A stretch of 64,000 bases of DNA from Candidatus Tayloriibacteriota bacterium (lineage in GTDB: Bacteria > Patescibacteriota > Minisyncoccia > Phycocordibacterales > PALSA-1337), in NCBI GenBank assembly GCA_037129895.1, contig JBAXUB010000004.1, positions 60 through 64,059 on the forward strand, in the 5' to 3' direction. Positions 1 through 37,878 of this stretch are shown here, one piece after another. Within the stretch, counting starts at the first letter, position 1, and every line of letters starts with the position of its first letter. A model generated the notes under the pieces. It worked only from the letters and a program-made list of their open reading frames with translations. It had not been told where the DNA came from and ran no database searches. The position numbers and the translations under genes are program-made.

Positions 1-67
1 TTGCCGAGGGAGGAGAAAATACGATACCTGTACCGAATCTGTAAGATTCGAGTCCCTCTCGGCGCAC
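1..67 (+). repeat. 3-prime half (Y part) of a ~110-nt structured repeat element; ends in a tRNA-3-prime-end-like tail (gattcgagtccctctcggcgcac)
   Basis: Homologous to 26664..26727 (gagaaaatacgaNacctgtaccgaaNctgtaagNttcRagtccc...ggcRcac). Hairpin cgaatct-gta-agattcg covaries with gaagct-gta-agcttc in the other copy. Confidence 0.5.
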
Positions 68-97
68 AAAAAAAACCGCGTAAGCGGTTTTTTGAGT
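68..97. terminator. bidirectional rho-independent terminator (A8-ccgcgtaagcgg-T6)
   Basis: Perfect GC-rich hairpin ccgc/gcgg with a gtaa loop, flanked by an A8 run and a T6 run. Confidence 0.6.
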
Positions 98-120
98 GGG
101 CGCCAAGCAAAGCGTTAGCT

Positions 121-170
121 TTGCGGAGGGGACTCGAAAAGGTCGAGTATATTTTCGAGTCCCTCTAAGG
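121..170 (+). repeat. 5-prime half (X part) of the same structured element: gaggggactcgaaaa-ggtcgagtatat-ttttcgagtccctc hairpin
   Basis: Homologous to 26618..26660. ~14-bp near-perfect hairpin with a 12-nt loop. The C/U difference between copies is compensated by G·U pairing. Confidence 0.5.
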
Positions 171-14060: not shown

Positions 14061-14095
14061 TTTCCATTTAATTTTTCCATTTTACATTAACTACC

Positions 14096-14950: not shown

Positions 14951-14959
14951 TAGATACCA

Positions 14960-14998
14960 TAAAAAAACCGTTAGATACACATTCTAACGGTTTTTTTG
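14960..14998. terminator. rho-independent terminator inside the r-protein cluster
   Basis: Hairpin aaccgttaga-tacacat-tctaacggtt flanked by an A7 run and a T7 run. Confidence 0.55.
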
Positions 14999-15161
14999 AT
15001 GTGTGGGTATTGTTGATAGAATGTATTCTCAAACGCGATATTTAGTATATACTTATGTAAATGTATAAACTATTCGTAAAGATGGGAAAAAGTGCAGTAA
15101 CACTAATAATGCGCCTCATACTTGGAAGATAGGCTATAGTTATTATTTTATAATATAGTCC

Positions 15162-15190
15162 TTGACTTCAAAGCACGGCTCTGTTAACAT
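15162..15190 (+). promoter_or_regulatory. candidate sigma70-type promoter for rpsS
   Basis: TTGACT, 17-nt spacer, TAACAT. Sits 40 nt upstream of the rpsS start. Confidence 0.4.
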
Positions 15191-15229
15191 GGCTCATGAG
15201 TCCACAAGGGCTTATTTTATTCTATTTTT

Positions 15230-15580
15230 ATGTCACGATCACTTAAAAAAGGCCCATACGTCGAAGAGAGATTGCTACGCAAGATCTTGGGTAAAAAGCC
15301 TGCAACAGCTGGTACTATAAAGACATGGGCACGCCGCTCTCAAATCTCACCAGAAATGGTTGGCTTTACTTTTGGTGTACACAATGGCAAGGCACATATT
15401 GATGTATTTGTAACCGAGGATATGGTAGGACACCGCCTCGGTGAATTTTCGCCTACACGTAAGTTCGTACGCCATGGAGGTAAGATGCAAAAGGAGCTCG
15501 AAATGAAAGCCAAGGAAGCTGAGATGACAGCCGCCAAGTCTGCTAAGGAAGCCGCTACTGCCGTAGTTGCCAAAAAATAA
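15230..15580 (+). CDS. rpsS: 30S ribosomal protein S19 (K/A-rich C-terminal extension)
   Basis: SLKKGPY...[13 protein letters not shown] motifs. Confidence 0.9.
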
Positions 15581-15589
15581 TACACTGCC

Positions 15590-16003
15590 ATGATCACCGC
15601 CTCATTAAAGAATTACAGAATAGCACCACGTAAAGTCCGTCTAGTTGCAGACATGATACGAGGCAAGAGTGTTATCCAAGCTGAAAATATCTTGGTTGGT
15701 GCAGTCAAGAAAGCAACAAACCCACTCGGCGATCTATTGGCGTCAGCAGTAGCCAATGCATCTCATAATTTCAAGATTGAGAAAGATGCACTTTTCGTAA
15801 AGGAGATCCGTGTTGATCAGGGATATGTTTTGAAGCGCAGCCAACCTATGGCACGAGGTTCAGCTTTTCCTATAAAGAAGAGAACGAGTCATGTCACATT
15901 GACACTCGCTCCTATAGAAGCAAAGGTAAAGAAGCAAGCAGGAAAGAACAAGAAGCAAGGAGAAGAGAGCAAGGCAAAAGCAGCAAAGGTTGCAAAGAAA
16001 TAA
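15590..16003 (+). CDS. rplV: 50S ribosomal protein L22 (K-rich C-terminal extension)
   Basis: L22 fold signature. Expected position in the cluster. Confidence 0.85.
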   Translation: MITASLKNYRIAPRKVRLVADMIRGKSVIQAENILVGAVKKATNPLGDLLASAVANASHNFKIEKDALFVKEIRVDQGYVLKRSQPMARGSAFPIKKRTSHVTLTLAPIEAKVKKQAGKNKKQGEESKAKAAKVAKK

Positions 16004-16016
16004 TAAATTTACCAAA

Positions 16017-16694
16017 ATGTCACACACCGTACATCCATATTCACATAGACTAGGAATCATACGCGACTGGAAGAGCCGATGGTTTTCTTCTGATAAGCTA
16101 TATCGAACATCATTGAAAGGGGACCTCATCATTCGAGAATTCCTACAGAAAGAATTGCGTGCGAACTACGTTGGTGGTTTGGATATAGAGCGCAATCAGA
16201 AAGTTCTACGCGTTATAGTGAAGACTTCTCGCCCAGGTATGCTCATCGGCAAGTCTGGTGATGGAGTCGTCAAACTTCGCGAGAAAATATTGAAGCTATT
16301 ACGCAAAAACAAGGTTGAGCTAAAGAGTGTTGAACTCAAGCTCGACATAGAAGAGATCCGCAGTCCAGAATCGAATGCCGCTATAGCAGCTATGATGGTT
16401 GCAGAGTCACTAGAGAAGCGTCTACCATTCCGACGTGTTATGAAGCAGACAATCGAGAAGGTTATGGCCAATAGAGATGTAAAGGGTATCCGTATCCGTC
16501 TCGGAGGTCGTCTAGGTGGTGCGGAGATCGCACGCTCAGAAGAGCTCAAGAAAGGTCAAGTTCCACTTCAGACATTGCGTGCGGATATCGACTTTGCTCG
16601 TGAGAAGGCACACATGACTTATGGAGACATAGGTATCAAGGTTTGGATATATAAGGGTGAGATATTCAAGAAGGACCAAGTCGTAGCCAAGTAA
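16017..16694 (+). CDS. rpsC: 30S ribosomal protein S3
   Basis: VHPYSHRLGIIRDWKSRWF N-terminus, KH domain. Start at the internal Met. Confidence 0.9.
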   Translation: MSHTVHPYSHRLGIIRDWKSRWFSSDKLYRTSLKGDLIIREFLQKELRANYVGGLDIERNQKVLRVIVKTSRPGMLIGKSGDGVVKLREKILKLLRKNKVELKSVELKLDIEEIRSPESNAAIAAMMVAESLEKRLPFRRVMKQTIEKVMANRDVKGIRIRLGGRLGGAEIARSEELKKGQVPLQTLRADIDFAREKAHMTYGDIGIKVWIYKGEIFKKDQVVAK

Positions 16695-16730
16695 TTTCCA
16701 TTTTAACTTTTCAATTTTCATCAAACTACC

Positions 16731-17156
16731 ATGTTATTTCCTAAAAAAGTAAAACATCGCAAGTGGTTCACAATGCGTACTCATCCTGACAAGGAAATGT
16801 CGCACGCTGATACACGTGGAGTAAAATTGGCTTTCGGTTCTTTTGGATTGAAGGCTATGAAATATTCTCGTATCACATCTAACCAGATCGAAGCTGCTCG
16901 TAAGGTCATGGCACGCTATGCTACAAAGTCTGGAAAAGTTTGGATCAGAATTTTCCCGGATCATCCTTTTACACAGAAACCTGCAGAAGTGAAAATGGGA
17001 AAAGGAAAAGGTGATCCAGTTGGCTTTATCGCCGAGGTGAAGCCAGGTCGCATCATGTTCGAGATCGACGGAGTAGATGCAGTCGTTGCTGCAGAGGCAC
17101 TTCGTAAGGCGGGAACAAAGTTGCCAGTCAAGACAAAAGTAGTCTCGAGAATGTAA
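16731..17156 (+). CDS. rplP: 50S ribosomal protein L16
   Basis: MLFPKKVKHRK N-terminus and L16 core. Confidence 0.9.
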   Translation: MLFPKKVKHRKWFTMRTHPDKEMSHADTRGVKLAFGSFGLKAMKYSRITSNQIEAARKVMARYATKSGKVWIRIFPDHPFTQKPAEVKMGKGKGDPVGFIAEVKPGRIMFEIDGVDAVVAAEALRKAGTKLPVKTKVVSRM

Positions 17157-17171
17157 TCAATACCAAATACC

Positions 17172-17378
17172 ATGAAAATGAAAGAAATCGTAAATAAGAA
17201 TAATTCAGACCTGAATCGTCTCATCACCGAGAAGAGAGAGGCTTTGAGAGCATTCAGATTTGGTTCTGCTGGCTCAAAGACAAAGAACGTCAAGGAAGGC
17301 CGAGGTATCAGGAAGGACATCGCACGCATAATGACGGAGCTAGCAAATGTAAAAGTAAAAATGGAAAATGGAAAATGA
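17172..17378 (+). CDS. rpmC: 50S ribosomal protein L29
   Basis: Small helical protein with LRAFRF motif. Expected position. Confidence 0.8.
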   Translation: MKMKEIVNKNNSDLNRLITEKREALRAFRFGSAGSKTKNVKEGRGIRKDIARIMTELANVKVKMENGK

Positions 17379-17467
17379 TGGACTGGAATTGTATTTTCCA
17401 TTTTAATATTTCAATTTTACATTAACTATAGACAAACACAGATAAATCAAGTAATATCAAACCCCAC

Positions 17468-17725
17468 ATGACAACAATCAAAACAACTGAAAATACACCA
17501 AAACGCCAGACATTTTCCGGTGTTGTTGTATCTGACAAGATGAAGGATACTACCGTAGTTGTCGTAGAGAGATACATCAAGCATGCAAAGTATCACAAGT
17601 TTTCAACAAAGAGGACAAAGATCTTGGCTCATGACCCAGGTAATACAAAGAAGATAGGAGACAAGGCCACGGTTGAAGCATGCAGACCAATATCCAAGAG
17701 AAAGGCATTCAAGATAATCGCATAA
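17468..17725 (+). CDS. rpsQ: 30S ribosomal protein S17
   Basis: GVVVSDKM..TVVV OB-fold signature. Confidence 0.9.
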   Translation: MTTIKTTENTPKRQTFSGVVVSDKMKDTTVVVVERYIKHAKYHKFSTKRTKILAHDPGNTKKIGDKATVEACRPISKRKAFKIIA

Positions 17726-17729
17726 TACC

Positions 17730-18101
17730 ATGATACAACCAAGAACGATCGTAAATATAGCAGACAATTCCGGAGCAAAGATCGGACGCATCTTCAAGGT
17801 ACTTGGTGCTACGAGAAAGCGCTATGCAGAGATCGGTGAGGTTGTCGTTCTATCAGTTCAGAAAGCAGAGCCTCGCAAGGCGATCAAGAAGAAAGACGTT
17901 TTGCATGCCGTAGTTGTCCGTCAAGTCAAACCTACACGACGTAAGGATGGTTCATATATACGTTTTGATGAGAATGCAGTCGTTATCATCGAAAAGGACA
18001 AGAAAGAACCAATCGCAGGACGTATATTCGGTCCTATACCTCGTGAAGTCGCCGAGGCAGGCTTCAAGACGATCGCTTCAAAGGCAGCTGAAATCGTATA
18101 A
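17730..18101 (+). CDS. rplN: 50S ribosomal protein L14
   Basis: MIQPRTIVNIADNSGAK N-terminus. Confidence 0.95.
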   Translation: MIQPRTIVNIADNSGAKIGRIFKVLGATRKRYAEIGEVVVLSVQKAEPRKAIKKKDVLHAVVVRQVKPTRRKDGSYIRFDENAVVIIEKDKKEPIAGRIFGPIPREVAEAGFKTIASKAAEIV

Positions 18102-18151
18102 TATTGTAGCGAAATTTTCCATTTTAACTTTTAAATTTTCCACTTACTACC

Positions 18152-18370
18152 ATGCATATCAAAAAAGGAGACACAGTCAAAATACTTTCAGGCGACGACA
18201 AGGGTAAAACCGGCAAAGTTGTAAAGGCTTTTCCTGCAACGAACAAGATCATTGTCGAGAAGGTGAATACTGTAAAGAAGCATGAGCGAGCTCGCAAAGA
18301 AGGCCAGAAAGGTCAGACAGTCGAAGTCGCTATGCCATTCGATGCTTCAAAGGCAGTAAAGACTGCATAA
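18152..18370 (+). CDS. rplX: 50S ribosomal protein L24 (short)
   Basis: IKKGDTVKILSGDDKGKTGKV KOW motif. Confidence 0.85.
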   Translation: MHIKKGDTVKILSGDDKGKTGKVVKAFPATNKIIVEKVNTVKKHERARKEGQKGQTVEVAMPFDASKAVKTA

Positions 18371-18406
18371 TTTTCCATTTTAACTTTTAAATTTAACATC
18401 AATACC

Positions 18407-18964
18407 ATGGCTTACAAATCCGTATACGAATTAAATAAAGATTCATTCAAGACATTGAAGGAACCATTGGGTCTCAAGAATCCAATGCAGACACCTCGCC
18501 TAGTCAAGGTAGTCATTTCTAGTGGTTTCGGTTCTGTGAAGGATAAAAAGAAGATCGAGATCATGGCAGACAGACTGGCTCGTATCACTGGCCAGAAGCC
18601 TGCTGTTCGTGTCACAAAGAAAGCTATAGCAACATTCAAGACTCGTGTTGGTGACCCTATCGGTTATCAGATCACACTTCGTGGTAAAAGGATGTGTGAA
18701 TTCTTGGATAGACTCATACACATTTCATTACCTCGAACAAAGGACTTCCGCGGCCTAGCCCGAACATCAGTTGATGCGATGGGGAACTACACGATCGGAG
18801 TGAAGGAACATACTATCTTCGCTGAGACTTCAGATGAAGACCTCAAGGATGTATTTGGTTTCGCTATCACTATCGTGACGACTTCGGATAACAAGAAATC
18901 GACATTGGCGTTTCTAGAATACTTGGGCATGCCTCTAAAGAAGGAAGGGGAGATAAAGAAATAG
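18407..18964 (+). CDS. rplE: 50S ribosomal protein L5
   Basis: PRLVKVVISSGFG motif and L5 core. Confidence 0.9.
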   Translation: MAYKSVYELNKDSFKTLKEPLGLKNPMQTPRLVKVVISSGFGSVKDKKKIEIMADRLARITGQKPAVRVTKKAIATFKTRVGDPIGYQITLRGKRMCEFLDRLIHISLPRTKDFRGLARTSVDAMGNYTIGVKEHTIFAETSDEDLKDVFGFAITIVTTSDNKKSTLAFLEYLGMPLKKEGEIKK

Positions 18965-19388: not shown

Positions 19389-21641
19389 GTGGAAAGAATC
19401 CCAGAAGAACCAAATTTTCATGAAATATCTGAAAAAAGGAAGGAACTCCGAGGGGCTATTTCTGAACTTGGTGATAAGGGACCTATTTTTGAAAAGCACT
19501 ATAAAAAACCACTAGCCGAGGCGGATGAGGAGGCGAGCAAATTCAAAATAGAAGATTTTGGTGGTATTAGTGGTGCCAAGAAAGTTCTCAAAAAACAAAA
19601 ATCCAAATACGAAGAAGATTTTTCTGAAGATAGGGCTCATATTGATTATGAAACTATTTTGAAGGTAGCGCCAGAAGTGGGCGAAGTGCAAAAGATAACA
19701 GAAGAGATTGCCGATCTTAAGGATTTTAGGATGCGTCGAATGTTAGAGCTTTTAAGCCCGCAAACTTCACTTTCAGCTAAAACGAGAAACGAAGCTGTGC
19801 TTAAAACTGTAAAAGAAGAAATCAGAGAAAACGAAGAAAAATTAGAAGAGGCTGACTCGTTGGTTTTACGCCAGGCAGAGCTTATCGAATACAAAGAAAA
19901 TTTGGCCAAGAGTGGTCATATTTGCATCACACCTAGTGTAGAAAAAGATCTGGAGGCGATAGGCGACAGAATGCTTACTGGCAAGCCGATGTTTCTACAT
20001 GGTCCTACAGGTACAGGAAAAACTTCTCTAGCCAGATTCGCTGCTACTCATTTTACTGGCAATGACCCGGAAATGGTTTTTTGTAATCCACAGACTAAGG
20101 AATCAAATGTCTGGGGGAAGACCGGTATTAAGCCAGCGGGAGGCGGAGCGATAGAAACTGTGGAGATTTATGGCCCGCTCGCCAAAGCAATGATAGACGG
20201 CAAGACCGTGATTTTTGATGAATTTACCGCTTTGCCAAAAGAGCAAATGGTTTTCATTAAAGGTGTTTTTAATGCCAAGGTGGGGGATAGAATAAATATT
20301 GTTGGCAATGGCATCGTCGAAATTGCTCCCGGTTTCCAAATGATTTTTACCGCCAACTTGAAATCTGAGAAAAATCCCGAGAGGCAGGATTTACCGCCAG
20401 AAATTGCCCGAGAATTTGAACAAAATAACCTAGAGGTCAAATATACACCCCAAGGTGAAGCTTACGACATTATGCTTTCTAGGCTTCTGAATCGAGACGG
20501 TTCTATCGATATGTCTTTTTATGATTTGAATACCACTCTGCCGAATCTTTGTAAAGTGATGACAGAAATCCAGGAATCGTATACCAACGAGACTGATAAA
20601 GAGGTGGCGAGAAGAGCAGGGGCAATGGATGCTTCCGGTAAGGTTTATTCCTTGAAAAAATTTGTGATGACACAGGGTTCAGTGGAAGCAATTTTGTCTT
20701 CATATTTGATAGAAAAACAGACGGGCAGGAAGGAGAGAAGTTTCGCAGAATTTTTGGATGAAAGATTCATGACAGCTCTGACTTTCAAAGAATACCCCAA
20801 AGAAGATAGAATCTTGGTGGCTAAGATTTTAGCGTCCAAAGGATTTTTGTTGACATTAAATGTCAAAGATTTGGATTTACCGGAAGATATTTTTCAGTTG
20901 AATACCATCAAAGCAATGCGTGGGGAAGATGCCGTAGAAGAACTCCAAAAAGAGTCTGGTGCGGTTAAACATCTAACCTTGAAGGAGGTGGCGGAGCTCG
21001 ACCCGTTCCATAAAAGGCCAGAATTATTGAAAAAACAAGCAGAAGCACTTTTGGGAGATGAAAAGAGCGAAAAAGACCCATTTTTAAAAAGCTTGAATAA
21101 AAAAATGGAGAAAATTTTTGGTAAGGAGAAACCAGTCAATATAATTGATCTATTGATCGCCCACGAACCTTTCCTCAGAGAAACTTTTGGTAAATGGTAC
21201 AGTGGTGATCAAAAGAAGATCGATATTCCTCAAAGACCATCTCTTGTCGACCCGCAATCGTTAGACTTTTCCTCCCTCAAATCCGATATTGACCCTTCAA
21301 AATTCGGTGAATACACCCTAAACCCCGAATGTCTCGGCCTAGACTTCAAAACTGCCAAAATCAAGGTCCTAGATATCCAAAAAGAAATCAAAACTAACAA
21401 ACTAACTGATATAGCCTCCATTGGTAAATACATTATTGACACCTACAGCAAAGACTATATCATCCCAGATATCTCCTTTTGGCAGTGGATGATTGAAAAA
21501 GGTGCCAATGCTCCAACTGAACTTCTGGATGGCAACTATCACTTTTGTTTCGGCTCTATCCTCCGCCGCTCGGGTGGCGATGCTGAGGTGCCTTATGCGA
21601 ATTGGCTTGGCTCTGAGTTCAGTCGGGATGCCCGCAGGTGA
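19389..21641 (+). CDS. AAA+ ATPase (MoxR/AAA_5-like) with C-terminal DGR variable-region domain; DGR target protein 1
   Basis: Walker A GPTGTGKTSLARF and Walker B VIFDEF. N-terminal coiled coil. The last ~130 nt match the TR with adenine-specific mismatches. Confidence 0.7.
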   Translation: MERIPEEPNFHEISEKRKELRGAISELGDKGPIFEKHYKKPLAEADEEASKFKIEDFGGISGAKKVLKKQKSKYEEDFSEDRAHIDYETILKVAPEVGEVQKITEEIADLKDFRMRRMLELLSPQTSLSAKTRNEAVLKTVKEEIRENEEKLEEADSLVLRQAELIEYKENLAKSGHICITPSVEKDLEAIGDRMLTGKPMFLHGPTGTGKTSLARFAATHFTGNDPEMVFCNPQTKESNVWGKTGIKPAGGGAIETVEIYGPLAKAMIDGKTVIFDEFTALPKEQMVFIKGVFNAKVGDRINIVGNGIVEIAPGFQMIFTANLKSEKNPERQDLPPEIAREFEQNNLEVKYTPQGEAYDIMLSRLLNRDGSIDMSFYDLNTTLPNLCKVMTEIQESYTNETDKEVARRAGAMDASGKVYSLKKFVMTQGSVEAILSSYLIEKQTGRKERSFAEFLDERFMTALTFKEYPKEDRILVAKILASKGFLLTLNVKDLDLPEDIFQLNTIKAMRGEDAVEELQKESGAVKHLTLKEVAELDPFHKRPELLKKQAEALLGDEKSEKDPFLKSLNKKMEKIFGKEKPVNIIDLLIAHEPFLRETFGKWYSGDQKKIDIPQRPSLVDPQSLDFSSLKSDIDPSKFGEYTLNPECLGLDFKTAKIKVLDIQKEIKTNKLTDIASIGKYIIDTYSKDYIIPDISFWQWMIEKGANAPTELLDGNYHFCFGSILRRSGGDAEVPYANWLGSEFSRDARR

Positions 21642-21681
21642 GACAATGACTGGCGCTCCAGCTATCGGGTTGCTCTCCTCG
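21549..21681 (+). other. DGR variable region VR1 (extends ~40 nt past the TGA stop at 21639..21641)
   Basis: 16 mismatches against the TR, 15 of them at TR adenines. The 3-prime ~35 nt (initiation of mutagenic homing, IMH-like) are identical to the TR. Confidence 0.8.
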
Positions 21682-21770
21682 AGAGGTAGTGTTTGTATTG
21701 ACCTTGGCCTTTTGACTTTTGTCTTGTCCCCATCGTCTGTTCTCTTTGATTCTTTTGGATTTTGCAATCC

Positions 21771-21800
21771 TCCCGAATGTAATCATTCGGGAGGATTTGT
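21771..21800 (+). other. perfect 13-bp hairpin atcctcccgaatg-taat-cattcgggaggat downstream of VR1
   Basis: Seen directly. Lies exactly at the boundary where the VR1 and VR2 duplicated modules diverge. Confidence 0.5.
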
Positions 21801-22035
21801 CCTATGTTATACTTGTCAGGCATATACAATAATGCGTCCGGGTACGCTTTGACGCGCTATATGCCGAGACCAACAGAACAGAGTCAAGTGCGGTTATCCA
21901 AACTTGAGCGTGTCTGCTGGTGGTGTAATAATTAAACACACTCTGTGAAGCCCACCAAGACATTATGATGTCAAAGACAAAAACCATCCGTGCTTAGGTG
22001 TCATCACGTGCGGGATTGGATATAGATGATGGGCT

Positions 22036-22165
22036 TCGCTAATCCTCCGCAACTCGGATGGCGATGCTAAGGTGCCTTATGCGAATTGGAATGGCACTGA
22101 GTTCAATCGGAATGCCAACAGGTTAGACAATGACTGGAACTCCAACTATCGAGTTGCTCTCCTCG
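22036..22165 (+). other. DGR template repeat (TR)
   Basis: Adenine-rich counterpart of VR1/VR2. AAC/AAT codons lie in register with the target reading frame. Confidence 0.8.
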
Positions 22166-22195
22166 TTACTGTGTTGATTTTCCACCAATTTGGAA

Positions 22196-22567
22196 TTATT
22201 TAAATTGGTGGTTTTGTTTTTTTATTTGGTTTTTCCAGCCGTATAACATTTTGCCGACTTCCTCAACTTTTTGCGACAGGCTAAAAAAAGTATTTTGATC
22301 TAGTCCTTTAAGCTCAAATAAAGCATAGAACATAAACTTAAGCGTATCATTCTTGGTAATGGCGGACATAATCAGTTCTGTGCGAAGGTGAGGTTCGCTA
22401 TAATATGCCGAAGCGATTGATTCTATCATCGTTGCTAGTATCGTCTCGATTCGTATACCCATGGAATAGCGAAGCGATTTGGGAATATGTTTCGTTTTGA
22501 GTTGCCAATCTACATAAAGAGCCAATACTTTTAAGCTTATGCTGGGCAGTTTGCTTGTCGTAGTCAT
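22196..22567 (-). CDS. avd: four-helix-bundle protein, DGR accessory Avd-like (23S rRNA intervening-sequence protein family)
   Basis: ~120-aa helical protein between TR and RT. Family resemblance to TIGR02436. Opposite strand to the RT. Confidence 0.5.
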   Translation of the reverse strand: MTTTSKLPSISLKVLALYVDWQLKTKHIPKSLRYSMGIRIETILATMIESIASAYYSEPHLRTELIMSAITKNDTLKFMFYALFELKGLDQNTFFSLSQKVEEVGKMLYGWKNQIKKQNHQFK

Positions 22568-22575
22568 TTTGCCTA

Positions 22576-23586
22576 TTGTATATGAAAAAAAATAAAAATA
22601 ACATACCCACCTTCGATGAAATTATAACCCTACCCTCGCTGTTTTCAGCATGGCGAGAGTTTGTTTGTGGCAAGAAATCAAAAGGTGATGTGGCGATATT
22701 TGCTATAAATTTATATTCTAATTTGCGAGCTCTAGGCACTGATTTGATGTATGACAGGTATCAGCATGGCGGATACGAATATTTTAAAGTCAAAGATCCG
22801 AAAGAACGCGACATTCATAAGGCGAGTGTGAGAGATCGGGTTGTTCATCATCTTTTATATTCTGCACTCTATGATCATTTTGACCATTATTTTATTTATG
22901 ATTCGTATTCTTGTCGGAATGGCAAAGGCACACACCGTGCAGTGGAGCGGTTTGCTAGATTTGTGTATTCTGTGAGCCAGAGAAATACGCAACCAGTTTG
23001 GATTCTTAAATGTGATATCCGAAAATGCTTTGCTTCAGTTGATCATAGTATCTTACTCGCTATATTAAAACGGCATATCTGTTGTCCGCATTTATCTGGT
23101 ATCGTTAGATCGGTAATTAGAAGCTTTTCAAGTGGCTTGGAAGGAAAAGGAATTCCGTTAGGTAATCTTACTAGCCAGTTATTTATTAATGTTTATCTTC
23201 ACGAATTAGACACATATATTAAAAGAACGCTCGGAGTAAAATATTATATCCGTTATGCTGATGATTTTGTAATTATGGCCAATAGCCGCTTCCTACTGGA
23301 CAATCAGCTCATCCTTATCCGCCATTTTTTGGAAACTAAACTCAAAATGCAAATTCATCCCGATAAAATATTCATTAAAACACTGGCGACAGGATTAGGT
23401 TTCCTCGGCTGGATAAAGTTTTTTGATCACTTGATTCCACGGGCTTCTACTAGACGGCGGATGTTTAAAACAATTAAAAATAGTCCGCATCGGGAAGTAA
23501 CAATACAGTCATATCTCGGAATGCTATCGCACGGGAATACGCACAAACTCCGGGAAATAATCCGGCAAATGCTTGATGGAAAATAG
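22576..23586 (+). CDS. DGR reverse transcriptase
   Basis: Motifs GIPLGNLTSQLFINVYL (IGxxxSQ hallmark of DGR RTs) and RYADDFVI (YxDD). 336 aa. Confidence 0.85.
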   Translation: MYMKKNKNNIPTFDEIITLPSLFSAWREFVCGKKSKGDVAIFAINLYSNLRALGTDLMYDRYQHGGYEYFKVKDPKERDIHKASVRDRVVHHLLYSALYDHFDHYFIYDSYSCRNGKGTHRAVERFARFVYSVSQRNTQPVWILKCDIRKCFASVDHSILLAILKRHICCPHLSGIVRSVIRSFSSGLEGKGIPLGNLTSQLFINVYLHELDTYIKRTLGVKYYIRYADDFVIMANSRFLLDNQLILIRHFLETKLKMQIHPDKIFIKTLATGLGFLGWIKFFDHLIPRASTRRRMFKTIKNSPHREVTIQSYLGMLSHGNTHKLREIIRQMLDGK

Positions 23587-23618
23587 AAAAAGCAGAAGAA
23601 ATTTGGTAGAATGACAAT

Positions 23619-25508
23619 ATGGAACGACTAGATATTATAGAAACAAAAACAGGAAAAAAGCCAGAAGAAATTGCTGAGGATAGCGAGCATGCTGAGGCGG
23701 TGGCATTGGTGGAAAAGCATAGGGATTTTTTTGAGCATTATGCCAAAGGTAAGATAAAAATTGAGCCGGCACCTAAAAGCATACCCACTTTTGCTTTTAA
23801 TTTGGAAAAGAACACCATTTATGTAAATTCAATGTTCTATAAAAAGCTGGGTTTGTCTGAAGAAAAAACAGTCTTTGCAACTCTACATGAGATAGAACAT
23901 TTTATGGAAAAATTGCAGATTCTCTCTGAAGATGGCGGTGAGAAATCTTTTGATAAGTATTTAAAGAGAATCAAAGCTTCTAAAGCCTATTCTCTGATGG
24001 ATAATTGCGTGGCGGATATTCGCGAGAATCGGGCAGTGGTTGGAAAGACCAATAAAGGAATGGGTGAGCTGGAGGAAAAAACCTACAAAGAGGATCTGTT
24101 CGCGGAAACCGATTTTACCAAACAACCTAGGCATATCCAACTTAGTCAGGCACTTTTGAGAGAGGCTAGAGTACCGGATGAAAAGTGCGATGTATCGTCG
24201 GAAGTGAGGCAAGCGCTTGATGAGGTGGGAAAAGTGAAAGGTTTGATGGAAATAATGACGAACCCAGAAACGCCAATGTCCATGCGTATGAAATTGCAAG
24301 ATAAATATATCTGGCCGAAAGTGGAATCACTTTTGGAAAAAGATATGGAGGATAAGAAAAAACAAAAAGAGCAAGAAAAAAAGGAAAAAGAAAAGGGAGA
24401 AGGGAATGATGGTCGAGAATCAGGTGAAGGTAAGGAAGGGCAAGAGGGTGATAAGGACGAAGAAACAGACCCGAATAAAACATTTGCAGACGAGTATGCC
24501 AGGGCGGAGGCGAAATTTCCCGAAGCTGTGCCGATAGAAGAGATAGAAAAAGCCTTGAAAGAATGGAAAGAAGCGCAAAAAGGTAAAGACAATAATGATA
24601 AAGCAGACGAGGACTATGCAAAGAAAATCGGCGTGGAGAAAGAAGATTTGCAGGACTACAGGAAAATAGTAGAAAATTTGGAAAAAACTGTGAATCCGGA
24701 AACGGATGTTGGTATATTAGACGAATTAAAAAATCTTTTTTCTAGAATTATTGCCAAACGAATAAAGGTTGCTCAAGTACCAAAGTATCCAGTAGAAGAA
24801 GGGGATGAATTGACCGATCCGGCGCAACTCGTGGCAGATGTAAAATCTGGCAATCTTCAACCGAAAGTCTGGGAAGATACAGAAATTATAGAAAAAAAGG
24901 GAAACAGATTTGGTGAAGTAGAAATCACCTTGGTTTGTGATCAGTCTGGTTCCATGGCGGGGCAGAAAGCGGAAGAGCAGAGAAAGTCTGCTGTTTTGGT
25001 AATGGAGGTATTGAAAGAGTTTGGGGAGCTGTGTGAAGCAGAAAAGATAAATATAGACAAACCGCTCGAAGTAAAGTCTGAGATTTACGGTTTCGGTGCT
25101 GGTGATGATGAAAAGCCAATGAAAAAGATGTCTGCGGAGCTTGGTGAAGCGGAAAGGATAGAAGTGCTGAAAAGACTTTATGATGTGCCAGGTGGAACGA
25201 CTGATTTCAATTGTTTGGAAGCAATAGATGGCAATTTGACTGAAAATATAAAAAATAAAATCAAGATTGGCGAGCTTAAAAAAATAGTGATTGTCTTTAC
25301 CGATGGTGGAAGTGATAATCCAGGGAGAGTGCAGGGTGTTTTAAAAAGCTTGAGAGATGGTGGAGTGATAGCGATCGGTGTGGGGATTACTAGCGAAGGA
25401 ACACCAGTCTTGTCTACTTATGCGCCGAATGCATTGGTGGTGGAAGATGTAAGTAAATTACCAATCGTTTTGGGTGAACTTTTAAAAGAACATTTGAAAG
25501 ATTTATAG
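23619..25508 (+). CDS. zincin-like (HEIEH) metallopeptidase motif + acidic low-complexity linker + C-terminal von Willebrand factor A domain protein
   Basis: HExxH in TVFATLHEIEHFM. MIDAS motif CDQSGSM and ...VFTDGGSD in the C-terminal region. Confidence 0.6.
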   Translation: MERLDIIETKTGKKPEEIAEDSEHAEAVALVEKHRDFFEHYAKGKIKIEPAPKSIPTFAFNLEKNTIYVNSMFYKKLGLSEEKTVFATLHEIEHFMEKLQILSEDGGEKSFDKYLKRIKASKAYSLMDNCVADIRENRAVVGKTNKGMGELEEKTYKEDLFAETDFTKQPRHIQLSQALLREARVPDEKCDVSSEVRQALDEVGKVKGLMEIMTNPETPMSMRMKLQDKYIWPKVESLLEKDMEDKKKQKEQEKKEKEKGEGNDGRESGEGKEGQEGDKDEETDPNKTFADEYARAEAKFPEAVPIEEIEKALKEWKEAQKGKDNNDKADEDYAKKIGVEKEDLQDYRKIVENLEKTVNPETDVGILDELKNLFSRIIAKRIKVAQVPKYPVEEGDELTDPAQLVADVKSGNLQPKVWEDTEIIEKKGNRFGEVEITLVCDQSGSMAGQKAEEQRKSAVLVMEVLKEFGELCEAEKINIDKPLEVKSEIYGFGAGDDEKPMKKMSAELGEAERIEVLKRLYDVPGGTTDFNCLEAIDGNLTENIKNKIKIGELKKIVIVFTDGGSDNPGRVQGVLKSLRDGGVIAIGVGITSEGTPVLSTYAPNALVVEDVSKLPIVLGELLKEHLKDL

Positions 25509-25528
25509 TTTAAGCCTATAATTGCAAT

Positions 25529-26344
25529 ATGAATTTTGAATCTATCGTAAACATGGCCAAGGGGTCAAAGAAAGAGGAAATAGTCAAAAAACCGGAAAAA
25601 TCCCAAGAGGAACTCCGAGGAGCTTTGGAGTCAAAATTAGAATCTTCGAAACCAGTCTTGCAAGAGGGAATCAAAGAATATGAGCAGGCTTTGAAAGATG
25701 ATACTTTCGAAGACCAAGATGGTGAGGCAGAAGGAGCTGGTGAGAAAAGGAAGGAAGCTATGCAAGCCAAGCTCAGCTCCATGTTTGACCGAGCGGAAAA
25801 AATGAGGAAGCAATTGGACAGTGGTGAAATTCTCGAGCAAATTCCTGAGGCCGATACTATCTTACGGGAACCTTTCCTCAGAGAAACTTTTGGTAAATGG
25901 TACAGTGGTGATCAAAAGAAGATCGATATTCCTCAAAGACCATCTCTTGTCGACCCGCAATCGTTAGACTTTTCCTCCCTCAAATCCGATATTGACCCTT
26001 CAAAATTCGGTGAATACACCCTAAACCCCGAATGTCTCGGCCTAGACTTCAAAACTGCCAAAATCAAGGTCCTAGATATCCAAAAAGAAATCAAAACTAA
26101 CAAACTAACTGATATAGCCTCCATTGGTAAATACATTATTGACACCTACAGCAAAGACTATATCATCCCAGATATCTCCTTTTGGCAGTGGATGATTGAA
26201 AAAGGTGCCAATGCTCCAACTGAACTTCTGGATGGCAACTATCACTTTTGTTTCGGCTCTATCCTCCGCCGCTCGGGTGGCGATGCTGAGGTGCCTTATG
26301 CGAATTGGCTTGGCTCTGAGTTCAGTCGGGATGCCCGCAGGTGA
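25529..26344 (+). CDS. DGR target protein 2 (short; unrelated acidic N-terminus fused to the same VR-bearing C-terminal domain)
   Basis: Last 159 aa identical to target 1. DNA 25868..26469 identical to 21165..21766. Confidence 0.65.
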   Translation: MNFESIVNMAKGSKKEEIVKKPEKSQEELRGALESKLESSKPVLQEGIKEYEQALKDDTFEDQDGEAEGAGEKRKEAMQAKLSSMFDRAEKMRKQLDSGEILEQIPEADTILREPFLRETFGKWYSGDQKKIDIPQRPSLVDPQSLDFSSLKSDIDPSKFGEYTLNPECLGLDFKTAKIKVLDIQKEIKTNKLTDIASIGKYIIDTYSKDYIIPDISFWQWMIEKGANAPTELLDGNYHFCFGSILRRSGGDAEVPYANWLGSEFSRDARR

Positions 26345-26384
26345 GACAATGACTGGCGCTCCAGCTATCGGGTTGCTCTCCTCG
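26252..26384 (+). other. DGR variable region VR2 (identical to VR1)
   Basis: Exact copy of VR1 including the TGA stop. Confidence 0.75.
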
Positions 26385-26496
26385 AGAGGTAGTGTTTGTA
26401 TTGACCTTGGCCTTTTGACTTTTGTCTTGTCCCCATCGTCTGTTCTCTTTGATTCTTTTGGATTTTGCATTATAGTTATCATGGAATTGTTCCAAA

Positions 26497-26583
26497 GTCG
26501 GAGTGGTGAAATTGGCAAACACGCAGCGTTCAGAACGCTGTGAGCTCACGCTCTTGGGGGTTCAAGTCCCCCCTCCGGCACCA
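26497..26583 (+). tRNA. tRNA-Leu (anticodon CAG), CCA encoded
   Basis: Manual fold: acceptor GUCGGAG/CUCCGGC, anticodon loop UUCAGAA, long variable arm, T-arm GGGGG-UUCAAGU-CCCCC. Close overall to E. coli tRNA-Leu(CAG). Confidence 0.85.
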
Positions 26584-26617
26584 AAATCAGCAGACCACTA
26601 AGCAAGCCAATAATTTG

Positions 26618-26727
26618 GCTTGCGGCGGGGGACTTGAAAAGGTCGAGTATATTTTCGAGCGGCTATGCCGTGAGAAAATACGAGACCTGTACCGAAGCTG
26701 TAAGCTTCAAGTCCCCCCTCCGGCACA
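26618..26727 (+). repeat. ~110-nt structured element (X-Y) whose last 22 nt exactly repeat the tRNA-Leu 3-prime end (T-loop to discriminator); followed by a T9 run
   Basis: ttcaagtcccccctccggcac occurs at 26563..26584 (tRNA) and 26706..26727. 5-prime gggggacttgaa pairs with 3-prime ttcaagtccccc. Two internal hairpins covary with the copy at 1..170. Confidence 0.55.
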
Positions 26728-26905
26728 TTTTTTTTTGCTATTTTCCTCATATTTTGCTAGTCTATATTCTACTGGTTTGAGGTATCAGCTCTGATCTATT
26801 CTCTCAGCAAAATATCTCCGATCTGTAAATGCGCGCGTAGCTGTCTTGGTAGGTCTAAGACATCGGGCGGGCAAATAATGTTTCGTTGATAAATAGAGTT
26901 TATAT

Positions 26906-26978
26906 GCGCGCGTAGCTCAGTTGGTAGAGCACGCCACTGATACTGGCGGGGTCCCAGGTTCGAATCCTGGCGCGCGCA
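26906..26978 (+). tRNA. tRNA-Ile (anticodon GAU)
   Basis: Cloverleaf: GCGCGCG acceptor, D-arm gctc/gagc, anticodon loop CUGAUAC, T-arm ccagg-ttcgaat-cctgg. Confidence 0.85.
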
Positions 26979-27087
26979 CCCGAGTAAATCCGCTTATGCG
27001 GATTTTTAGTTGAGGTTTTATGTATGAGAGCGGAATTTTCCATTATGTCAATATTGCTTTTTTCTCTTCAAATGAGAAAATTGGAGC

Positions 27088-27939
27088 ATGGAGAAAGAGA
27101 AAAAATATTTAGCAATATTTGAAGGTAAACAAATTCGCCGACACTGGGATGGTGGTTCGGAGAAGTGGTATTTTTCTGTAGTTGATGTTGTTGGTGCGTT
27201 ATCAGGTAGCGAGCGCCCAAGAAAATATTGGGATGATCTAAAGCGACGTCTTTTTGATGAAGGAAGTGAAGTGTCCGCAAAAATCGGACAGTTGAAAATG
27301 GTGGCCGAGGATGGTAAATTGCGTGACACTGACTGTGCTGAAACCGAGGTGATGCTCCGTATTGTCCAGTCGATCCCTTCTCCAAATGCTGAACCATTCA
27401 AACTCTGGCTTGCAAAGGTTGGTTATGAACGGCTTGAGGAGACTGCAGATCCTGAACTCGCCATATTACGTGCACTAAAAACATACCTGAGTAAAGGTTA
27501 TTCATTGAATTGGATAAACCAACGCTTGAAAAGCATTGAGATACGCAAGGAACTTACAGATGAATGGGAAAAGTGTGGCGTAAAAGAAGGGTTTGAGTTT
27601 GCTATACTGACAGACGAGATATCAAAGGCTTGGACAGGGATGACAACTAGAGAGTACAAAAGCTTAAAAAATTTAAAGAAAGAAAATCTACGAGACAATA
27701 TGACAAACCTCGAATTGGTACTAAATATGTTAGCAGAGACCGCTACAACGGAGATTTCCAAGAAGGAAGCACCAAGAGGATTTGAACCGAGCAGAAAAGT
27801 TGCAAAAGATGGTGGAAGTATTGCTGGCAATGCGAGAAAACAAATCGAGCAGAAAATTGGAAAATCTATTTTGACAAGTGACAATTTCGAGACATTTAAG
27901 AATAAGTCTCTTAAGGAAAAAGGCAGTCAATCTATTTAA
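27088..27939 (+). CDS. Bro-N domain protein, DinD-like (paralog of 1675..2520)
   Basis: Motif LAIFEGKQIRRHWDGGSEKWYFSVVDVVGAL. ~65% identical to the first copy throughout. Confidence 0.55.
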   Translation: MEKEKKYLAIFEGKQIRRHWDGGSEKWYFSVVDVVGALSGSERPRKYWDDLKRRLFDEGSEVSAKIGQLKMVAEDGKLRDTDCAETEVMLRIVQSIPSPNAEPFKLWLAKVGYERLEETADPELAILRALKTYLSKGYSLNWINQRLKSIEIRKELTDEWEKCGVKEGFEFAILTDEISKAWTGMTTREYKSLKNLKKENLRDNMTNLELVLNMLAETATTEISKKEAPRGFEPSRKVAKDGGSIAGNARKQIEQKIGKSILTSDNFETFKNKSLKEKGSQSI

Positions 27940-31049: not shown

Positions 31050-31174
31050 GAATCAAACGGTTGACAAACGGTTCTGAAGGAGTATTATTACAGCATACCT
31101 TCTGTTGCTTCGGTGGCAGAACGCGAAATCGCAACCCTGTGTTGCGATTTCTGCATAAGGGAATATACATTGTA

Positions 31175-31825
31175 ATGAAGTTATATATTTATATAGATGG
31201 TTTTAATTTATATTACGGATGTCTCAAAGACAGTCCTTTCCTTTGGTTGGATGTAAATAAAATGTCTCAACTACTGTTTCCTAATGATGTAATAGTTAGA
31301 GTTAAATACTTTACTGCTCCAATAAAGGTGAGAAAAGATGATGATCCAGATAAGCCCAGCCGTCAACAGATATACCTTCGAGCACTTCGGACTATTACGA
31401 ATCTGGAGATTATTGAGGGTACTTTTTTGAGTCATAAAGTTTCCATGAAGTTGGCCAACAAAGATGGTTATGCTCTGGTTATTAAAAGTGAGGAAAAGGG
31501 CACTGATGTTAATATTGCGTCACATCTGATCAATGATGCACATAATAGACGCTTCGAAAAAGCAGTAGTTGTATCGAATGATTCCGACCTCGTGACACCA
31601 GTACGTATGGTTACTAAAGATTTGAACTTACTAGTTACGGTAATTAGTCCTTTTGATAAGAATAATATTCAACTGCAGGCTGTGGCTACTAGTGTTAAGC
31701 AGATACGCAAAGGCCTTCTTCGTGTAAGTCAATTTAGTGAAAAGCTAGTCGATTCAACAGGTGAATTTTCAATACCCGAAAGCTGGAAGGATGCAGGTCT
31801 GACGTCAGTATCTGGAGCTAATTAG
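31175..31825 (+). CDS. NYN/LabA-like PIN-fold domain protein
   Basis: MKLYIYIDGFNLYYG N-terminus, SNDSDL acidic motif. Start at the internal Met (ORF opens at 31061). Confidence 0.55.
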   Translation: MKLYIYIDGFNLYYGCLKDSPFLWLDVNKMSQLLFPNDVIVRVKYFTAPIKVRKDDDPDKPSRQQIYLRALRTITNLEIIEGTFLSHKVSMKLANKDGYALVIKSEEKGTDVNIASHLINDAHNRRFEKAVVVSNDSDLVTPVRMVTKDLNLLVTVISPFDKNNIQLQAVATSVKQIRKGLLRVSQFSEKLVDSTGEFSIPESWKDAGLTSVSGAN

Positions 31826-35121: not shown

Positions 35122-35242
35122 ACTGTACGTGCTGGAAATGGAATATAGGGGCACGGATATTTTTCTGCTGAAAAATTCCTCGTGCTCGCGCCAGTCGCGC
35201 TCGCAAGTCCCCTATATTCCATTTTCAGCACGTACAGTTCTC
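35122..35242 (+). repeat. structured repeat family copy A: 65-nt core embedded in a 30-bp near-perfect inverted repeat
   Basis: Arms actgtacgtgctggaaatggaatatagggg / cccctatattccattttcagcacgtacagt. Core identical (1 nt) to copy B. Confidence 0.75.
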
Positions 35243-36432: not shown

Positions 36433-37878
36433 TTAAATTATCGTTATATTTTTTATTGTCTCTTCAATCATTCCTCTGAATCCATGTGATCCCAAAAAGG
36501 CGATCACGTCTCCCTTTTTTGCAATCGATAATATATACGAGACTAGTTTTTCATCGTCATCTATATGAATAGTGTTTTTCTGTGTCTTTCCGATTATCTC
36601 AGCTAATTCCTGACCTTCGATTGGTACGTTTGGATCATCCGTAGCAACTTTGAGCTTCGTCAGTCGTGGGATGATGACAGTATCGGCATCTCTGAAAGCA
36701 TTGTCATATTTGTGAGCTGACTGACGTTCTCTGCCACCACTGTTCGGCTCGAATATTACGATAACTTTGCCACCTTTACTCTCACTACTAGAACTTCCAT
36801 AAATGTCTTTGAGTGTTGATAATACAGATGAGGCCTTTTCTGGGGAGTGTGCGATGTCATCGATGACCGATATACCTTTCGTAGATTTGGATCCATCAAG
36901 CCTCTTTTCCATGCGTCTTTTCAAGCCATTAAATTCTGAGATGGCTCGTATGACCGTTTCTGCATCTATGCCAATAGATATAGCCATTGCGAAACATCCT
37001 GTTATGTTCTCGGCTTGATATGATCCGAGCATCGGTGATTGTAATCTGTAATGTTTGTTATCGTGAGTGATTTTGAAATCAAGCCCCAACTGAGATTGGA
37101 TAACGTCAGAGTATATAAAGTCTGCAGTATTCTGTGTTCCGTATGTAATTATTTTCCCAGTGAAGTTTTCTATAATCTTGTTTATTCCAGGCTGATCGCA
37201 TCTCGTTACCAATCGTCCGTTCTCGGGTACTTCTCGAAGCAATTTCCTGAAGGCTTCAAAGTAGCTCTCTTCTGTAGGGTATAGATCAGCATGATCCCAG
37301 GATACAGCCGAAAGTAATAGATGGGTAGGTTTGTAATGGAAAAACTTGGCACGATCATCTGTTGGTGAACTCTTGTATTCATCTCCTTCAAATACATTCC
37401 ATGGAGAGTCGGTAACCATCGCCGAAGACTCATGTGATAGAGAAACACCGCCAAACATATAGCTGGGGTTTAATTGGGCTTTTTCCAAGATAAATGAAAG
37501 TAATGCTGAAGAAGATGTTTTACCCCATGTACCTGAACAAACTATAGAATTGTCCCTGACAAAATATTTTCCTAGAATTTCTGGATATGAAAGCATAGGG
37601 ATGCCATGTTCCTTTGCGTATATCGTTTCAGGGTTCTGACTTCCAGATGCAGCACCGATCATGACAACGTCCGGAATGCCGCCCTCAATCATCTTTTCTG
37701 GGTGCCAACCAGCATAGTAGGGGATATTGTGCTTTTCTAGTTCAGTAGAGACTGGTGGAAAAAAACCTTTGTCACTACCTGTTACATCGGCGCCAGCATT
37801 TTTCAGTGCTATAGCTATAGCACTTGTTGCGACACCGCAAATACCGATTACGTGGATTTTTCTTGGTAAATTAATCAT
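36433..37878 (-). CDS. Mur ligase family protein (MurC/Mpl-like)
   Basis: N-terminal HVIGICGVATSAIAIAL Rossmann. Central GTWGKTSS P-loop (GTNGKTT-like). Confidence 0.65.
   Translation of the reverse strand: MINLPRKIHVIGICGVATSAIAIALKNAGADVTGSDKGFFPPVSTELEKHNIPYYAGWHPEKMIEGGIPDVVMIGAASGSQNPETIYAKEHGIPMLSYPEILGKYFVRDNSIVCSGTWGKTSSSALLSFILEKAQLNPSYMFGGVSLSHESSAMVTDSPWNVFEGDEYKSSPTDDRAKFFHYKPTHLLLSAVSWDHADLYPTEESYFEAFRKLLREVPENGRLVTRCDQPGINKIIENFTGKIITYGTQNTADFIYSDVIQSQLGLDFKITHDNKHYRLQSPMLGSYQAENITGCFAMAISIGIDAETVIRAISEFNGLKRRMEKRLDGSKSTKGISVIDDIAHSPEKASSVLSTLKDIYGSSSSESKGGKVIVIFEPNSGGRERQSAHKYDNAFRDADTVIIPRLTKLKVATDDPNVPIEGQELAEIIGKTQKNTIHIDDDEKLVSYILSIAKKGDVIAFLGSHGFRGMIEETIKNITII

Follow-up and report, generated by a model that had tools for sequence, protein, structure and literature searches.

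Structured non-coding elements in the 3′ flank of Patescibacteria tRNA genes carry clamps that match the local tRNA tail

Several described systems resemble, each in part, a small structured element that lies behind tRNA genes of Patescibacteria. The attachment (att) sites of P4-type integrases share with it a repeat of the tRNA 3′ end that begins in the T-loop, tandem arrays bounded by such repeats, and empty sites. Tn7, with attTn7 downstream of glmS, and the tRNA-homing type V-K CRISPR-associated transposons (CASTs) likewise recognise the end of a gene and insert tens of bases downstream, leaving the gene undamaged, and the tRNA-matching guide of a CAST adjoins a structured RNA. MITEs (miniature transposable elements with inverted repeats) and the Correia, RPE, REP/BIME and PATE elements are also small, non-coding, structured, multi-copy and insertion-polymorphic. 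Integron attC sites, the CTX-phage attP(+) site and the Y- or T-shaped inverted terminal repeats (ITRs) of parvoviruses offer strand-specific branched hairpins of ~60–150 nt, cassette-like arrays, and a stem that mimics or constitutes the recombination or replication site, whereas the tRNA-like domain of transfer-messenger RNA (tmRNA), YrlA/Y RNA, mascRNA and 3′ETS-leuZ offer acceptor-like ends with a discriminator and a location in a tRNA unit. The element considered here, ~130 nt long, lies behind tRNA-Leu(CAG) in a stretch of 64,000 nt (the window) of contig JBAXUB010000004.1 from a Candidatus Tayloriibacteriota bacterium, and it belongs to an apparently undescribed family of small structured non-coding elements of Patescibacteria. 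All copies have four helices in common, designated Pa, P1, P2 and P3, of which P1, the clamp, pairs a 5′ strand with a copy of the tRNA tail. The reading preferred here, with a probability of about one half, is that of a structured, non-coding element, polymorphic in its insertion, that targets the 3′ flank of tRNA genes on the tRNA strand and whose clamp derives from the tRNA tail.

Each of the closest known systems fails at least one of the defining features tested. Unlike P4-type att sites, the repeats of the element are only ~125 nt apart with no integrase or cargo in ~20 copies, its interior is a covarying fold that carries the complement of the repeat, and it appears to lie behind the trailer or terminator of the tRNA and not in the T-loop. 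Unlike Tn7 and CASTs, it is non-coding and without transposase, Cas or Tns genes, and the segments that match the tRNA are its own termini, in both orientations. The arms of the element are specific to the locus and tRNA allele, whereas MITEs and the similar repeats have a constant terminal inverted repeat; moreover, there is no short target-site duplication, the copy number per genome is apparently low, and no autonomous partner is known. Unlike attC, CTX attP(+) and parvoviral ITRs, the element conserves P2 in sequence as well, and no recombinase or Rep gene is linked to it; in the attC core test (RYYYAAC / GTTRRRY) it would have GTTCAAG or GTTCGAA, with C where R is required. Among the tRNA-like RNAs, Pa would sit at the place of the D-arm, but the element has neither a T-arm hairpin, its T-loop bases being paired to the 5′ strand, nor an anticodon arm, its acceptor and T sequences are copies of those in the tRNA next to it, and no rsr or smpB gene was seen near it. 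Like the msr-msd of retrons, it has a1/a2-like terminal inverted repeats, a conserved A-G(C) after the 5′ repeat and internal hairpins, but no reverse transcriptase (RT) gene lies 3′ of it in any locus, the sole RT of the window being that of a diversity-generating retroelement (DGR) 3 kb upstream with its own template and variable repeats. Readings as a retron, a T-box or a tmRNA were rejected from the anatomy, and hammerhead, 5S-like and K-turn structures were rejected after comparison by eye only. Group I introns of Patescibacteria tRNA genes lie in the anticodon loop at position 35/36 (PMC13011429), and an intron was rejected: the element is outside an intact tRNA, only ~130 nt long and without an Rfam intron match. 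No description of it was found in Rfam 15 or in the literature that could be searched.

In the window, tRNA-Leu(CAG), a class II tRNA with encoded CCA, occupies 26497..26583 on the forward strand, on which all features of this locus lie (ARAGORN; Rfam tRNA score 53.1 bits; comparison with loci L015, L018, L019 and L034, the labels L001 and so on denoting the loci from Patescibacteria genomes and metagenomes across which element copies were compared). Its tail, the 21-mer TTCAAGTCCCCCCTCCGGCAC (tail 1, 26561..26581), which comprises the T-loop, the 3′ strands of the T-stem and acceptor stem, the discriminator and C74, recurs exactly at 26706..26726 (tail 2), 145 nt away from start to start and with 124 nt between the copies; in 100 shuffles no such match occurred. 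A preliminary description of this DNA had reported the repeat, which is real and exact, as 22 nt recurring 120 bp downstream, and both figures are corrected here. Between the tails lie a conserved A-G and hairpin Pa (26601..26623; Pa itself, GCAAGCCAA-TAAT-TTGGCTTGC at 26602-26623, is a perfect inverted repeat of 9 bp), the 5′ strand of P1 or "anti-T" GGGGGACTTGAA (26627..26638), the long hairpin P2, AAGGTCGAGTATATTTTCGAG ... GAGAAAATACGAGACCT (26640..26688), which is conserved in sequence with a tandem G.A/A.G motif and whose variable, covarying tip reads CGGC-TAT-GCCG in the window, the junction J2/3 GTACC (26689..26693; R-U-A-C-N in the family alignment), and the short hairpin P3, GAAGCT-GTA-AGCTTC (26694..26708), with a conserved GUA triloop and a covarying U-A or C-G closing pair. 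The first 12 nt of tail 2 are the 3′ strand of P1. The anti-T segment is 100% complementary to both copies of the 21-mer, that is, to the T-loop and 3′ T-stem of the tRNA and to tail 2, as previously described, and in the consensus fold the T-loop bases of tail 2 pair with 26632-26638. Directly 3′ of tail 2 a run of nine T (T9, 26728..26736), read from the sequence, is a possible transcript end. The P1 stem, 9 nt and T9 follow one another at the end of the element, and a simple terminator scan made no call there; other copies have separate terminator hairpins 3′ of the element.

The segment 26584-26740 folds at -65 kcal/mol, compared with -39.3 +/- 4.1 kcal/mol for shuffles (z = -6.35). Contig L036, from another assembly, is 100% identical to the window over 26130-27089, and the region is therefore not a chimera peculiar to one assembly, a concern raised at the outset.

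The structural alignment comprises 12 of the ~20 copies recovered from Patescibacteria genomes and metagenomes. In it, 96.8% of the cells assigned to pairs are paired, a value that falls to 27-49% when the partner strand is slid by 1-3 columns, and compensatory changes are found in 27 of the 37 pairs (Pa 8/9, P2 10/14, P2 tip 3/4, P3 4/5); none of 500 shuffles attains any of these measures. P3, which is paired throughout (100%), was correctly outlined in the preliminary description as gaaGct-gta-agCttc and is strongly supported by covariation, whereas for the other hairpin proposed there, gacuYgaaaa/uuuucgag, covariation supports GGUCGAG.../...CGAGACC (P2) instead. The tRNA strand has 14 G.U pairs but only 5 A.C mismatches, an excess that favours folding of the sense strand. 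The resulting structure is a Y-shaped core of P2 and P3, with Pa, clamped by P1 and often extended by an acceptor-like helix P0. In the complete copies L001, L011 and L034 the two ends form an acceptor-stem-like pairing that includes the discriminator; the acceptor-like helix is absent from many other copies, among them the main copy of the window, and ARAGORN calls no tRNA or tmRNA on the element. GNA triloops (the GUA loop of P3) and mini-hairpins of GCGAAGC type between tail and anti-tail occur in L001, L007 and L011.

Two subtypes, E1 and E2, make up the family, which ranges from about 110 to 170 nt. With the covariance model R1, every E1 copy scores between 104 and 147 bits (the window copy 135 bits), and the model also detects E2, a GC-rich subtype of the same architecture with a longer P3; L018 and L034 hold intermediate variants. 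A covariance-model search of this kind had been proposed in the preliminary description. Among 185,579 species-representative genomes, 7 contain an exact match to the P2 21-mer AAGGTCGAGTATATTTTCGAG, against a chance expectation of ~0.3 matches in 596 Gb, and all seven are metagenome-assembled genomes (MAGs) of Patescibacteria (Saccharibacteria, Paceibacterota and Taylorbacteria); a second pattern recovered six further true metagenome loci, and locus L013 from the metagenome scan was dismissed as a chance match. These genome and metagenome scans were exact-match pattern searches, so that the family size and host range they give are lower bounds. Two E1 patterns had no match in viral contigs; two E2 patterns gave nine loci there, without a tRNA and without a covariance-model match, which were rejected as chance matches in GC-rich phages. 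BLAST against phages and plasmids returned no match, nor did spurious open reading frames (ORFs) overlapping the element when used as queries for more copies. Rfam 15, which covers tRNA, tmRNA, T-box, YrlA, 5S, SRP, ribozymes and group I introns among other families, searched at gathering and permissive thresholds with the window and ten related loci, passes only two tRNAs in the window and tRNAs alone in the ten loci; the top sub-threshold score on the element is 15.8 bits for HTH-XRE, the gathering score of which is 49.8.

The element is tied to tRNA genes by position and by sequence. Among the 16 copies tabulated for this link, 13 have a tRNA gene on the same strand 8-39 nt upstream, and in L007 the distance is 221 nt. 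By amino acid these upstream tRNAs are Leu in eight cases, Arg in two, and Tyr, Ser, Ile and Cys in one each; the listing by anticodon has Leu-CAG (two), Leu-TAG (two), Leu-TAA (two), Leu-GAG, Tyr, Ser, Arg-GCG (two), Ile and Cys, to which L034 adds a second Ile. No tRNA is in reach of L004 or of the E1 copy of L010, both of which have a decayed tail fragment upstream, and at L022 the contig ends within the tRNA, of which the tail alone is visible. At L007 and L010 a further module was observed: L007 ~6180-6390 (-) and L010 ~880-1000 (+), otherwise unrelated loci, have in common ccccaNNgNggggaagggtgtgggga ... gaaaaaggttcg, directly upstream of their E1 copies and ending in a decayed tRNA-tail-like fragment. 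It separates the tRNA of L007 from the element by ~220 nt and may be another tail-associated insertion.

The 5′ strand of P1 is a perfect complement, 10-14 nt long, of the T-loop and 3′ T-stem of the element's own tRNA in 12 of the 14 copies that have a tRNA upstream; the match is interrupted in L007 and in the E1 variant of L018. A direct repeat of the tRNA tail of 19-24 nt is present in seven copies, and in many copies the complement of the 3′ acceptor strand, located 5′ of Pa, reaches into the trailer and the terminator A-run. These arms are 29 nt long and 97% complementary at the Arg copy of L010, and complementary at 15/15 nt in L034. Since trailer bases lie inside the repeats, the source of the arms is the gene or the precursor transcript and not the mature tRNA. 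In L002, L003, L014 and the Arg copy of L010 the tail copy has diverged, whereas the complement is still perfect to the tRNA itself, which indicates that the match tracks the tRNA and not solely the 3′ end of the element. As a separate observation, the 3′ flank of tRNA-Ile in L020 (~3362-3430), where no element is detectable, has fragments resembling the tail end TGCGCGCAC and the anti-T GGATTCGA that may be a decayed copy.

Sister genomes, reached through pyruvate-kinase homologues of 78-92% identity, contain filled and empty sites at the same tRNA genes. The empty tRNA-Leu site that the preliminary description had suggested looking for exists in L015, L019 and L034, whereas L018 has a divergent E1 and the window an E1 behind tRNA-Leu(CAG). 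Behind tRNA-Ile(GAT) the window, L015 and L019 are empty, L018 has an E2 and L034 an E1, and the arms of these last two match the tRNA-Ile allele of their own genome; a patchy, "converted" tail is seen at the L018-Ile copy. The tRNA-Leu(CAG) flanks of L018, L019 and L015 do not align with the window, whose tRNA is a different allele. The cleanest comparison is offered by L002 and L003, which have near-identical tRNA-Cys and tRNA-Leu(TAA) genes. L003 is empty behind tRNA-Cys, and the extra segment of L002, ~145 nt comprising an E2 and a tail copy, is a clean indel starting ~22 nt after tRNA-Cys. The short flank directly after tRNA-Cys is common to filled and empty alleles, and no short target-site duplication was seen at the L002/L003 junctions. 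The tRNA-Ile terminator is similar in the empty window site, L018 and L034, although terminators can converge. The insertion boundaries rest on this single clean filled/empty pair and this single terminator comparison.

Tandem arrays also occur. In L011 the order is tRNA-Ser, E1, tail, E2, tail, with three perfect tails in all. At the start of the window, copy A (1..67, forward strand; cmsearch 42.3 bits) is the 3′ part of a full element, 5′-truncated by the window edge, and ends in the tail TTCGAGTCCCTCTCGGCGCAC (47-67), which comes from a class II tRNA just outside the window. It is followed by an A-run, a hairpin and a T-run (68..93, forward strand), a terminator-like unit that is also found 3′ of the upstream tRNA and is part of the tandem unit, and then by copy B (94..166, forward strand; cmsearch 26-28 bits), which runs through the anti-acceptor, Pa, the anti-T and the 5′ strand of P2 without a difference from the 5′ half of copy A and is truncated thereafter. 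L022 has the corresponding order of class II tRNA tail, terminator, full element, tail, terminator and 5′-half element, and judged by this sequence comparison the arrangement is a tandem repeat cut by the window edge. The second copy placed at 1..170 in the preliminary description, with its tRNA-like tail, therefore exists, but it is tandem, not "rearranged". Core identity between the two copies in the window is 81%, which brings them no nearer to each other than to copies from other genomes, and distant loci share modules (Pa, tip, P3) in mosaic fashion.

No conserved protein gene accompanies the element. No ORF family is common to element neighbourhoods across loci, and the 40 window ORFs scanned with Pfam include no integrase or transposase match. 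In the window the element is followed by tRNA-Ile(GAT) (26905-26981; ARAGORN and Rfam) and then by a Bro-N gene; the association with Bro-N genes noted previously looks incidental, and a link was rejected because no neighbour protein is common to the loci. Just upstream of tRNA-Ile, a ~41-nt insertion relative to L015 was observed (26826-26917), within which 26832-26846 duplicates the 14 nt ATGCGCGCGTAGCT spanning the tRNA-Ile 5′ end (26903-26917). Just upstream of tRNA-Leu lies the DGR (19389-26384), with its RT at 22576-23586, a template repeat at 22043-22165 and variable repeats at 21559-21681 and 26262-26384 whose departures from the template fall almost exclusively on template adenines. 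At the 3′ ends of its target genes at least 517 bp are duplicated exactly (21165-21681 = 25868-26384), which makes both variable repeats identical; an AAA_5 ATPase domain is present in the first target (19389-21641), and a VWA protein (23619-25508) is encoded between the RT and the second target. A link of the DGR to the element was rejected, since no RT is near other copies, as was a Y RNA/Ro relationship, the VWA protein having neither a TROVE match nor a homologue in the PDB and no such gene being near other copies. A block of the window from 19.35 to 26.73 kb, which takes in the DGR, a tRNA-Leu allele of foreign type and the element, stands in place of ~0.3 kb of L015. Its right-hand end coincides exactly with tail 2, homology to L015 being resumed at the T9 run; its left border has no remnant of an ancestral tRNA-Leu. 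The tRNA-Leu(CAG) of the window (acceptor GUCGGAG, T-arm GGGGG/CCCCC) is very different from the GGGCACG type of L015, L018, L019 and L034, and the neighbouring tRNA-Ile is identical to that of L015, L018 and L020; by sequence, the tRNA-Leu seems to have been replaced together with the DGR block.

The mode of movement, and action as RNA or as single-stranded DNA, we infer as follows. The element would be a non-autonomous insertion, "selfish" or hitch-hiking, that finds tRNA genes through the complementarity of its 5′ arm to the conserved T-loop and acceptor strand and lands a few to ~40 nt behind the tRNA, directly after its terminator where one exists, in what would be a safe harbour like those used in Tn7 or CAST homing. 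Its arms would be copied from the local tRNA tail, or continually corrected to it, by fold-back or template-switch synthesis, which would explain the allele-specific matches, the trailer bases in the repeats, the terminator-centred palindromes and the patchy "converted" tails. In the window, a promoter-like site TTGATT-16-TATAGT (26449..26476, forward strand), found by a consensus scan ~20 nt upstream of tRNA-Leu, is a candidate start of a transcript comprising the tRNA and the element; read-through from it is probable, and the sense strand would then fold, with the clamp and T9 ending the transcript.

Several observations weigh against this reading. A terminator-like hairpin lies between tRNA and element in at least seven loci, which argues against simple co-transcription of the two at those loci. 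P2 is near-identical in sequence across most E1 copies, including that of a Saccharibacteria MAG, a degree of conservation equally compatible with selection for a host function and with recognition by a mobilising factor. The L002/L003 pair is consistent neither with simple duplication of the target site nor with crossing-over within the T-loop, and copies within one genome are not near-identical, so that a recent burst has not taken place. Neither an autonomous relative nor an excised form nor a mobilising enzyme turned up, and gain and loss by recombination between strains could mimic transposition. In addition, the ~20 copies examined are a biased sample, most loci having been fetched because the element is present.

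A serious rival, though a rather unlikely one, is that the element is a host-functional companion RNA of the tRNA, transcribed with it or just after it. Its borrowed P0 and P1 would let the enzymes acting on tRNA ends (RNase P, RNase Z or exonucleases, the CCA-adding enzyme) liberate it and make it stable, the P2/P3 core would bind a conserved protein or RNA, and presence or absence would reflect gene gain and loss with recombination between strains. The strong covariation and the constancy of P2, which extends to distant lineages of the candidate phyla radiation (CPR), are what such an RNA would lead one to expect, as are the placement on the tRNA strand, the sense-strand preference of the G.U pairs, the order of promoter, tRNA, element and T9 in the window, which resembles a transcription unit, and the acceptor-stem-like pairing of the ends in complete copies. 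Functional precedents also count in its favour: the 3′ trailers of tRNAs can be functional small RNAs, as with 3′ETS-leuZ of E. coli, and tRNA-like ends drive the processing of mascRNA and tmRNA. However, close relatives do without the element at the same tRNA, one site can be occupied by different subtypes, and there are tandem arrays as well as truncated copies. Many copies lack the acceptor-like helix, the T-loop is sequestered in P1, leaving no tRNA elbow for RNase P or TruB, terminator-like hairpins often intervene, and neither ARAGORN nor Rfam detects any likeness to tRNA. A small structured RNA using the tRNA end and a tiny tRNA-targeting module had both been suggested in the preliminary description; both fit the structure, the family and the presence/absence data reported here, and they are not mutually exclusive.

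Two further explanations invoke site-specific recombination. By analogy with integron attC or the CTX-phage attP(+) site, the element might be a cargo-less integrative module that recombines as folded single-stranded DNA, the tail/anti-tail stem mimicking the duplex at the 3′ end of a tRNA gene, with a tyrosine recombinase encoded elsewhere and arrays produced by repeated integration. The units are indeed bounded by repeats of the tRNA 3′ end, arrays of the L011 type look as if tandem integrations had used a single att site, a branched hairpin with full pairing can be drawn for one unit (145 nt in the window), folding is strand-specific, and the size is near that of attC sites and the CTX attP hairpin; the GNA triloops, GCGAAGC-type mini-hairpins and tandem sheared G.A pairs are motifs that are especially stable in DNA. 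Nevertheless, this analogy is judged quite improbable as an account of the element: no recombinase is linked to it in any locus or found among the window ORFs scanned, its arms are specific to the local tRNA allele, unlike a pre-formed attP, and the T-loop sequence GTTCRAN misfits the attC R′ box GTTRRRY. The tRNA-Ile terminator, similar in the empty window site and in two loci filled by different subtypes, looks host-derived, and together with the tRNA-Cys flank common to filled and empty alleles it argues for an insertion behind the tail and not in it. Very improbable is the other explanation, that an island of kilobase scale entered tRNA-Leu through a tyrosine integrase and was later deleted almost entirely, leaving an attL/attR scar. 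This had been put forward in the preliminary description, and a direct repeat from T-loop to 3′ end is its textbook footprint, to which the replaced block ending exactly at tail 2 may be added. It is poorly supported, however. Against it stand the reappearance of the 110-150 nt structure behind nine or more tRNA species in many genomes, in every case short and without integrase or cargo, an interior that covaries as a folded strand, the presence of the tail's complement, for which an att scar has no need, and the left border of the block, where an ancestral tRNA-Leu remnant is lacking.

The preferred reading, an insertion-polymorphic structured element with a tail-derived clamp, admits a more specific and unlikely version, in which the element is a mobile unit of ~130 nt without any protein, guided to tRNA genes by base-pairing and with a clamp templated by the target. 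The bipartite 5′ arm (anti-acceptor, Pa, anti-T) would read the T-loop and acceptor strand of the tRNA gene or its primary transcript, insertion would take place at the end of the tRNA transcription unit, and the clamp would be re-synthesised from the target through fold-back or template-switch copying, so that each copy would carry an inverted and a direct copy of its own target. There is a real, if small, chance that the mode of insertion is categorically new. A second Y-shaped family, "Y2", was observed in the window (35148-35212 and 39782-39846 on the forward strand, 12124-12190 on the reverse strand) and in L034 (11479-11530 and 5842-5895). It has a conserved core of 65 nt with two hairpins, and its clamp is a locus-specific, near-perfect inverted repeat of 10-32 bp that differs in each copy, paralleling the tRNA-tail element in its conserved Y core and in a clamp made of local sequence; orthologous empty sites of Y2 did not align. 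Its clamps hint that target-templated clamps could be a general mode of insertion in these genomes.

Other features of the window were noted in passing. Repeated intergenic modules at 7845-7945, 9540-9619 and 10198-10278 flank genes without an assigned function and comprise a terminator-like hairpin AGAGCCGCATTTCCATAGGGAAGTGCGGTCTCTTTTTTT followed by palindromes of the CCTCGACACGTTGTAGAGGTCTGACCTCTGCA type. Six copies of a 39-nt motif, TTTCCATTTTAAC.TTTCAATTTT...CATG, lie in 12863-18410, mostly ending at the ATG starts of genes of the ribosomal-protein operon, and may be a shared promoter or a leader or translation signal. An NYN-domain gene (31061-31825) stands between pyruvate kinase and radC, where none was called in the sister loci examined, and an ATE_C/Fem-like gene (aminoacyl-tRNA transferase fold; 37878-38552) lies inside a Mur ligase/MraY cell-wall cluster.

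With this family, a well-supported structured nucleic acid in two subtypes joins the almost unexplored non-coding repertoire of the phylum, and the covariance models built here are ready for a census. It also has a practical consequence for annotation: the T-loop-to-3′-end repeats made by these elements will be misread as att sites by island-prediction tools, and the elements give rise to spurious ORFs. To our knowledge, no described RNA family or mobile element has a clamp taken from the tail of a neighbouring tRNA and matched to the local allele, and this allele-matched clamp points to an unusual mechanism of targeting or copying. If base-pair-guided, target-templated insertion were true, the element would be a minimal natural system for placing DNA beside tRNA genes.

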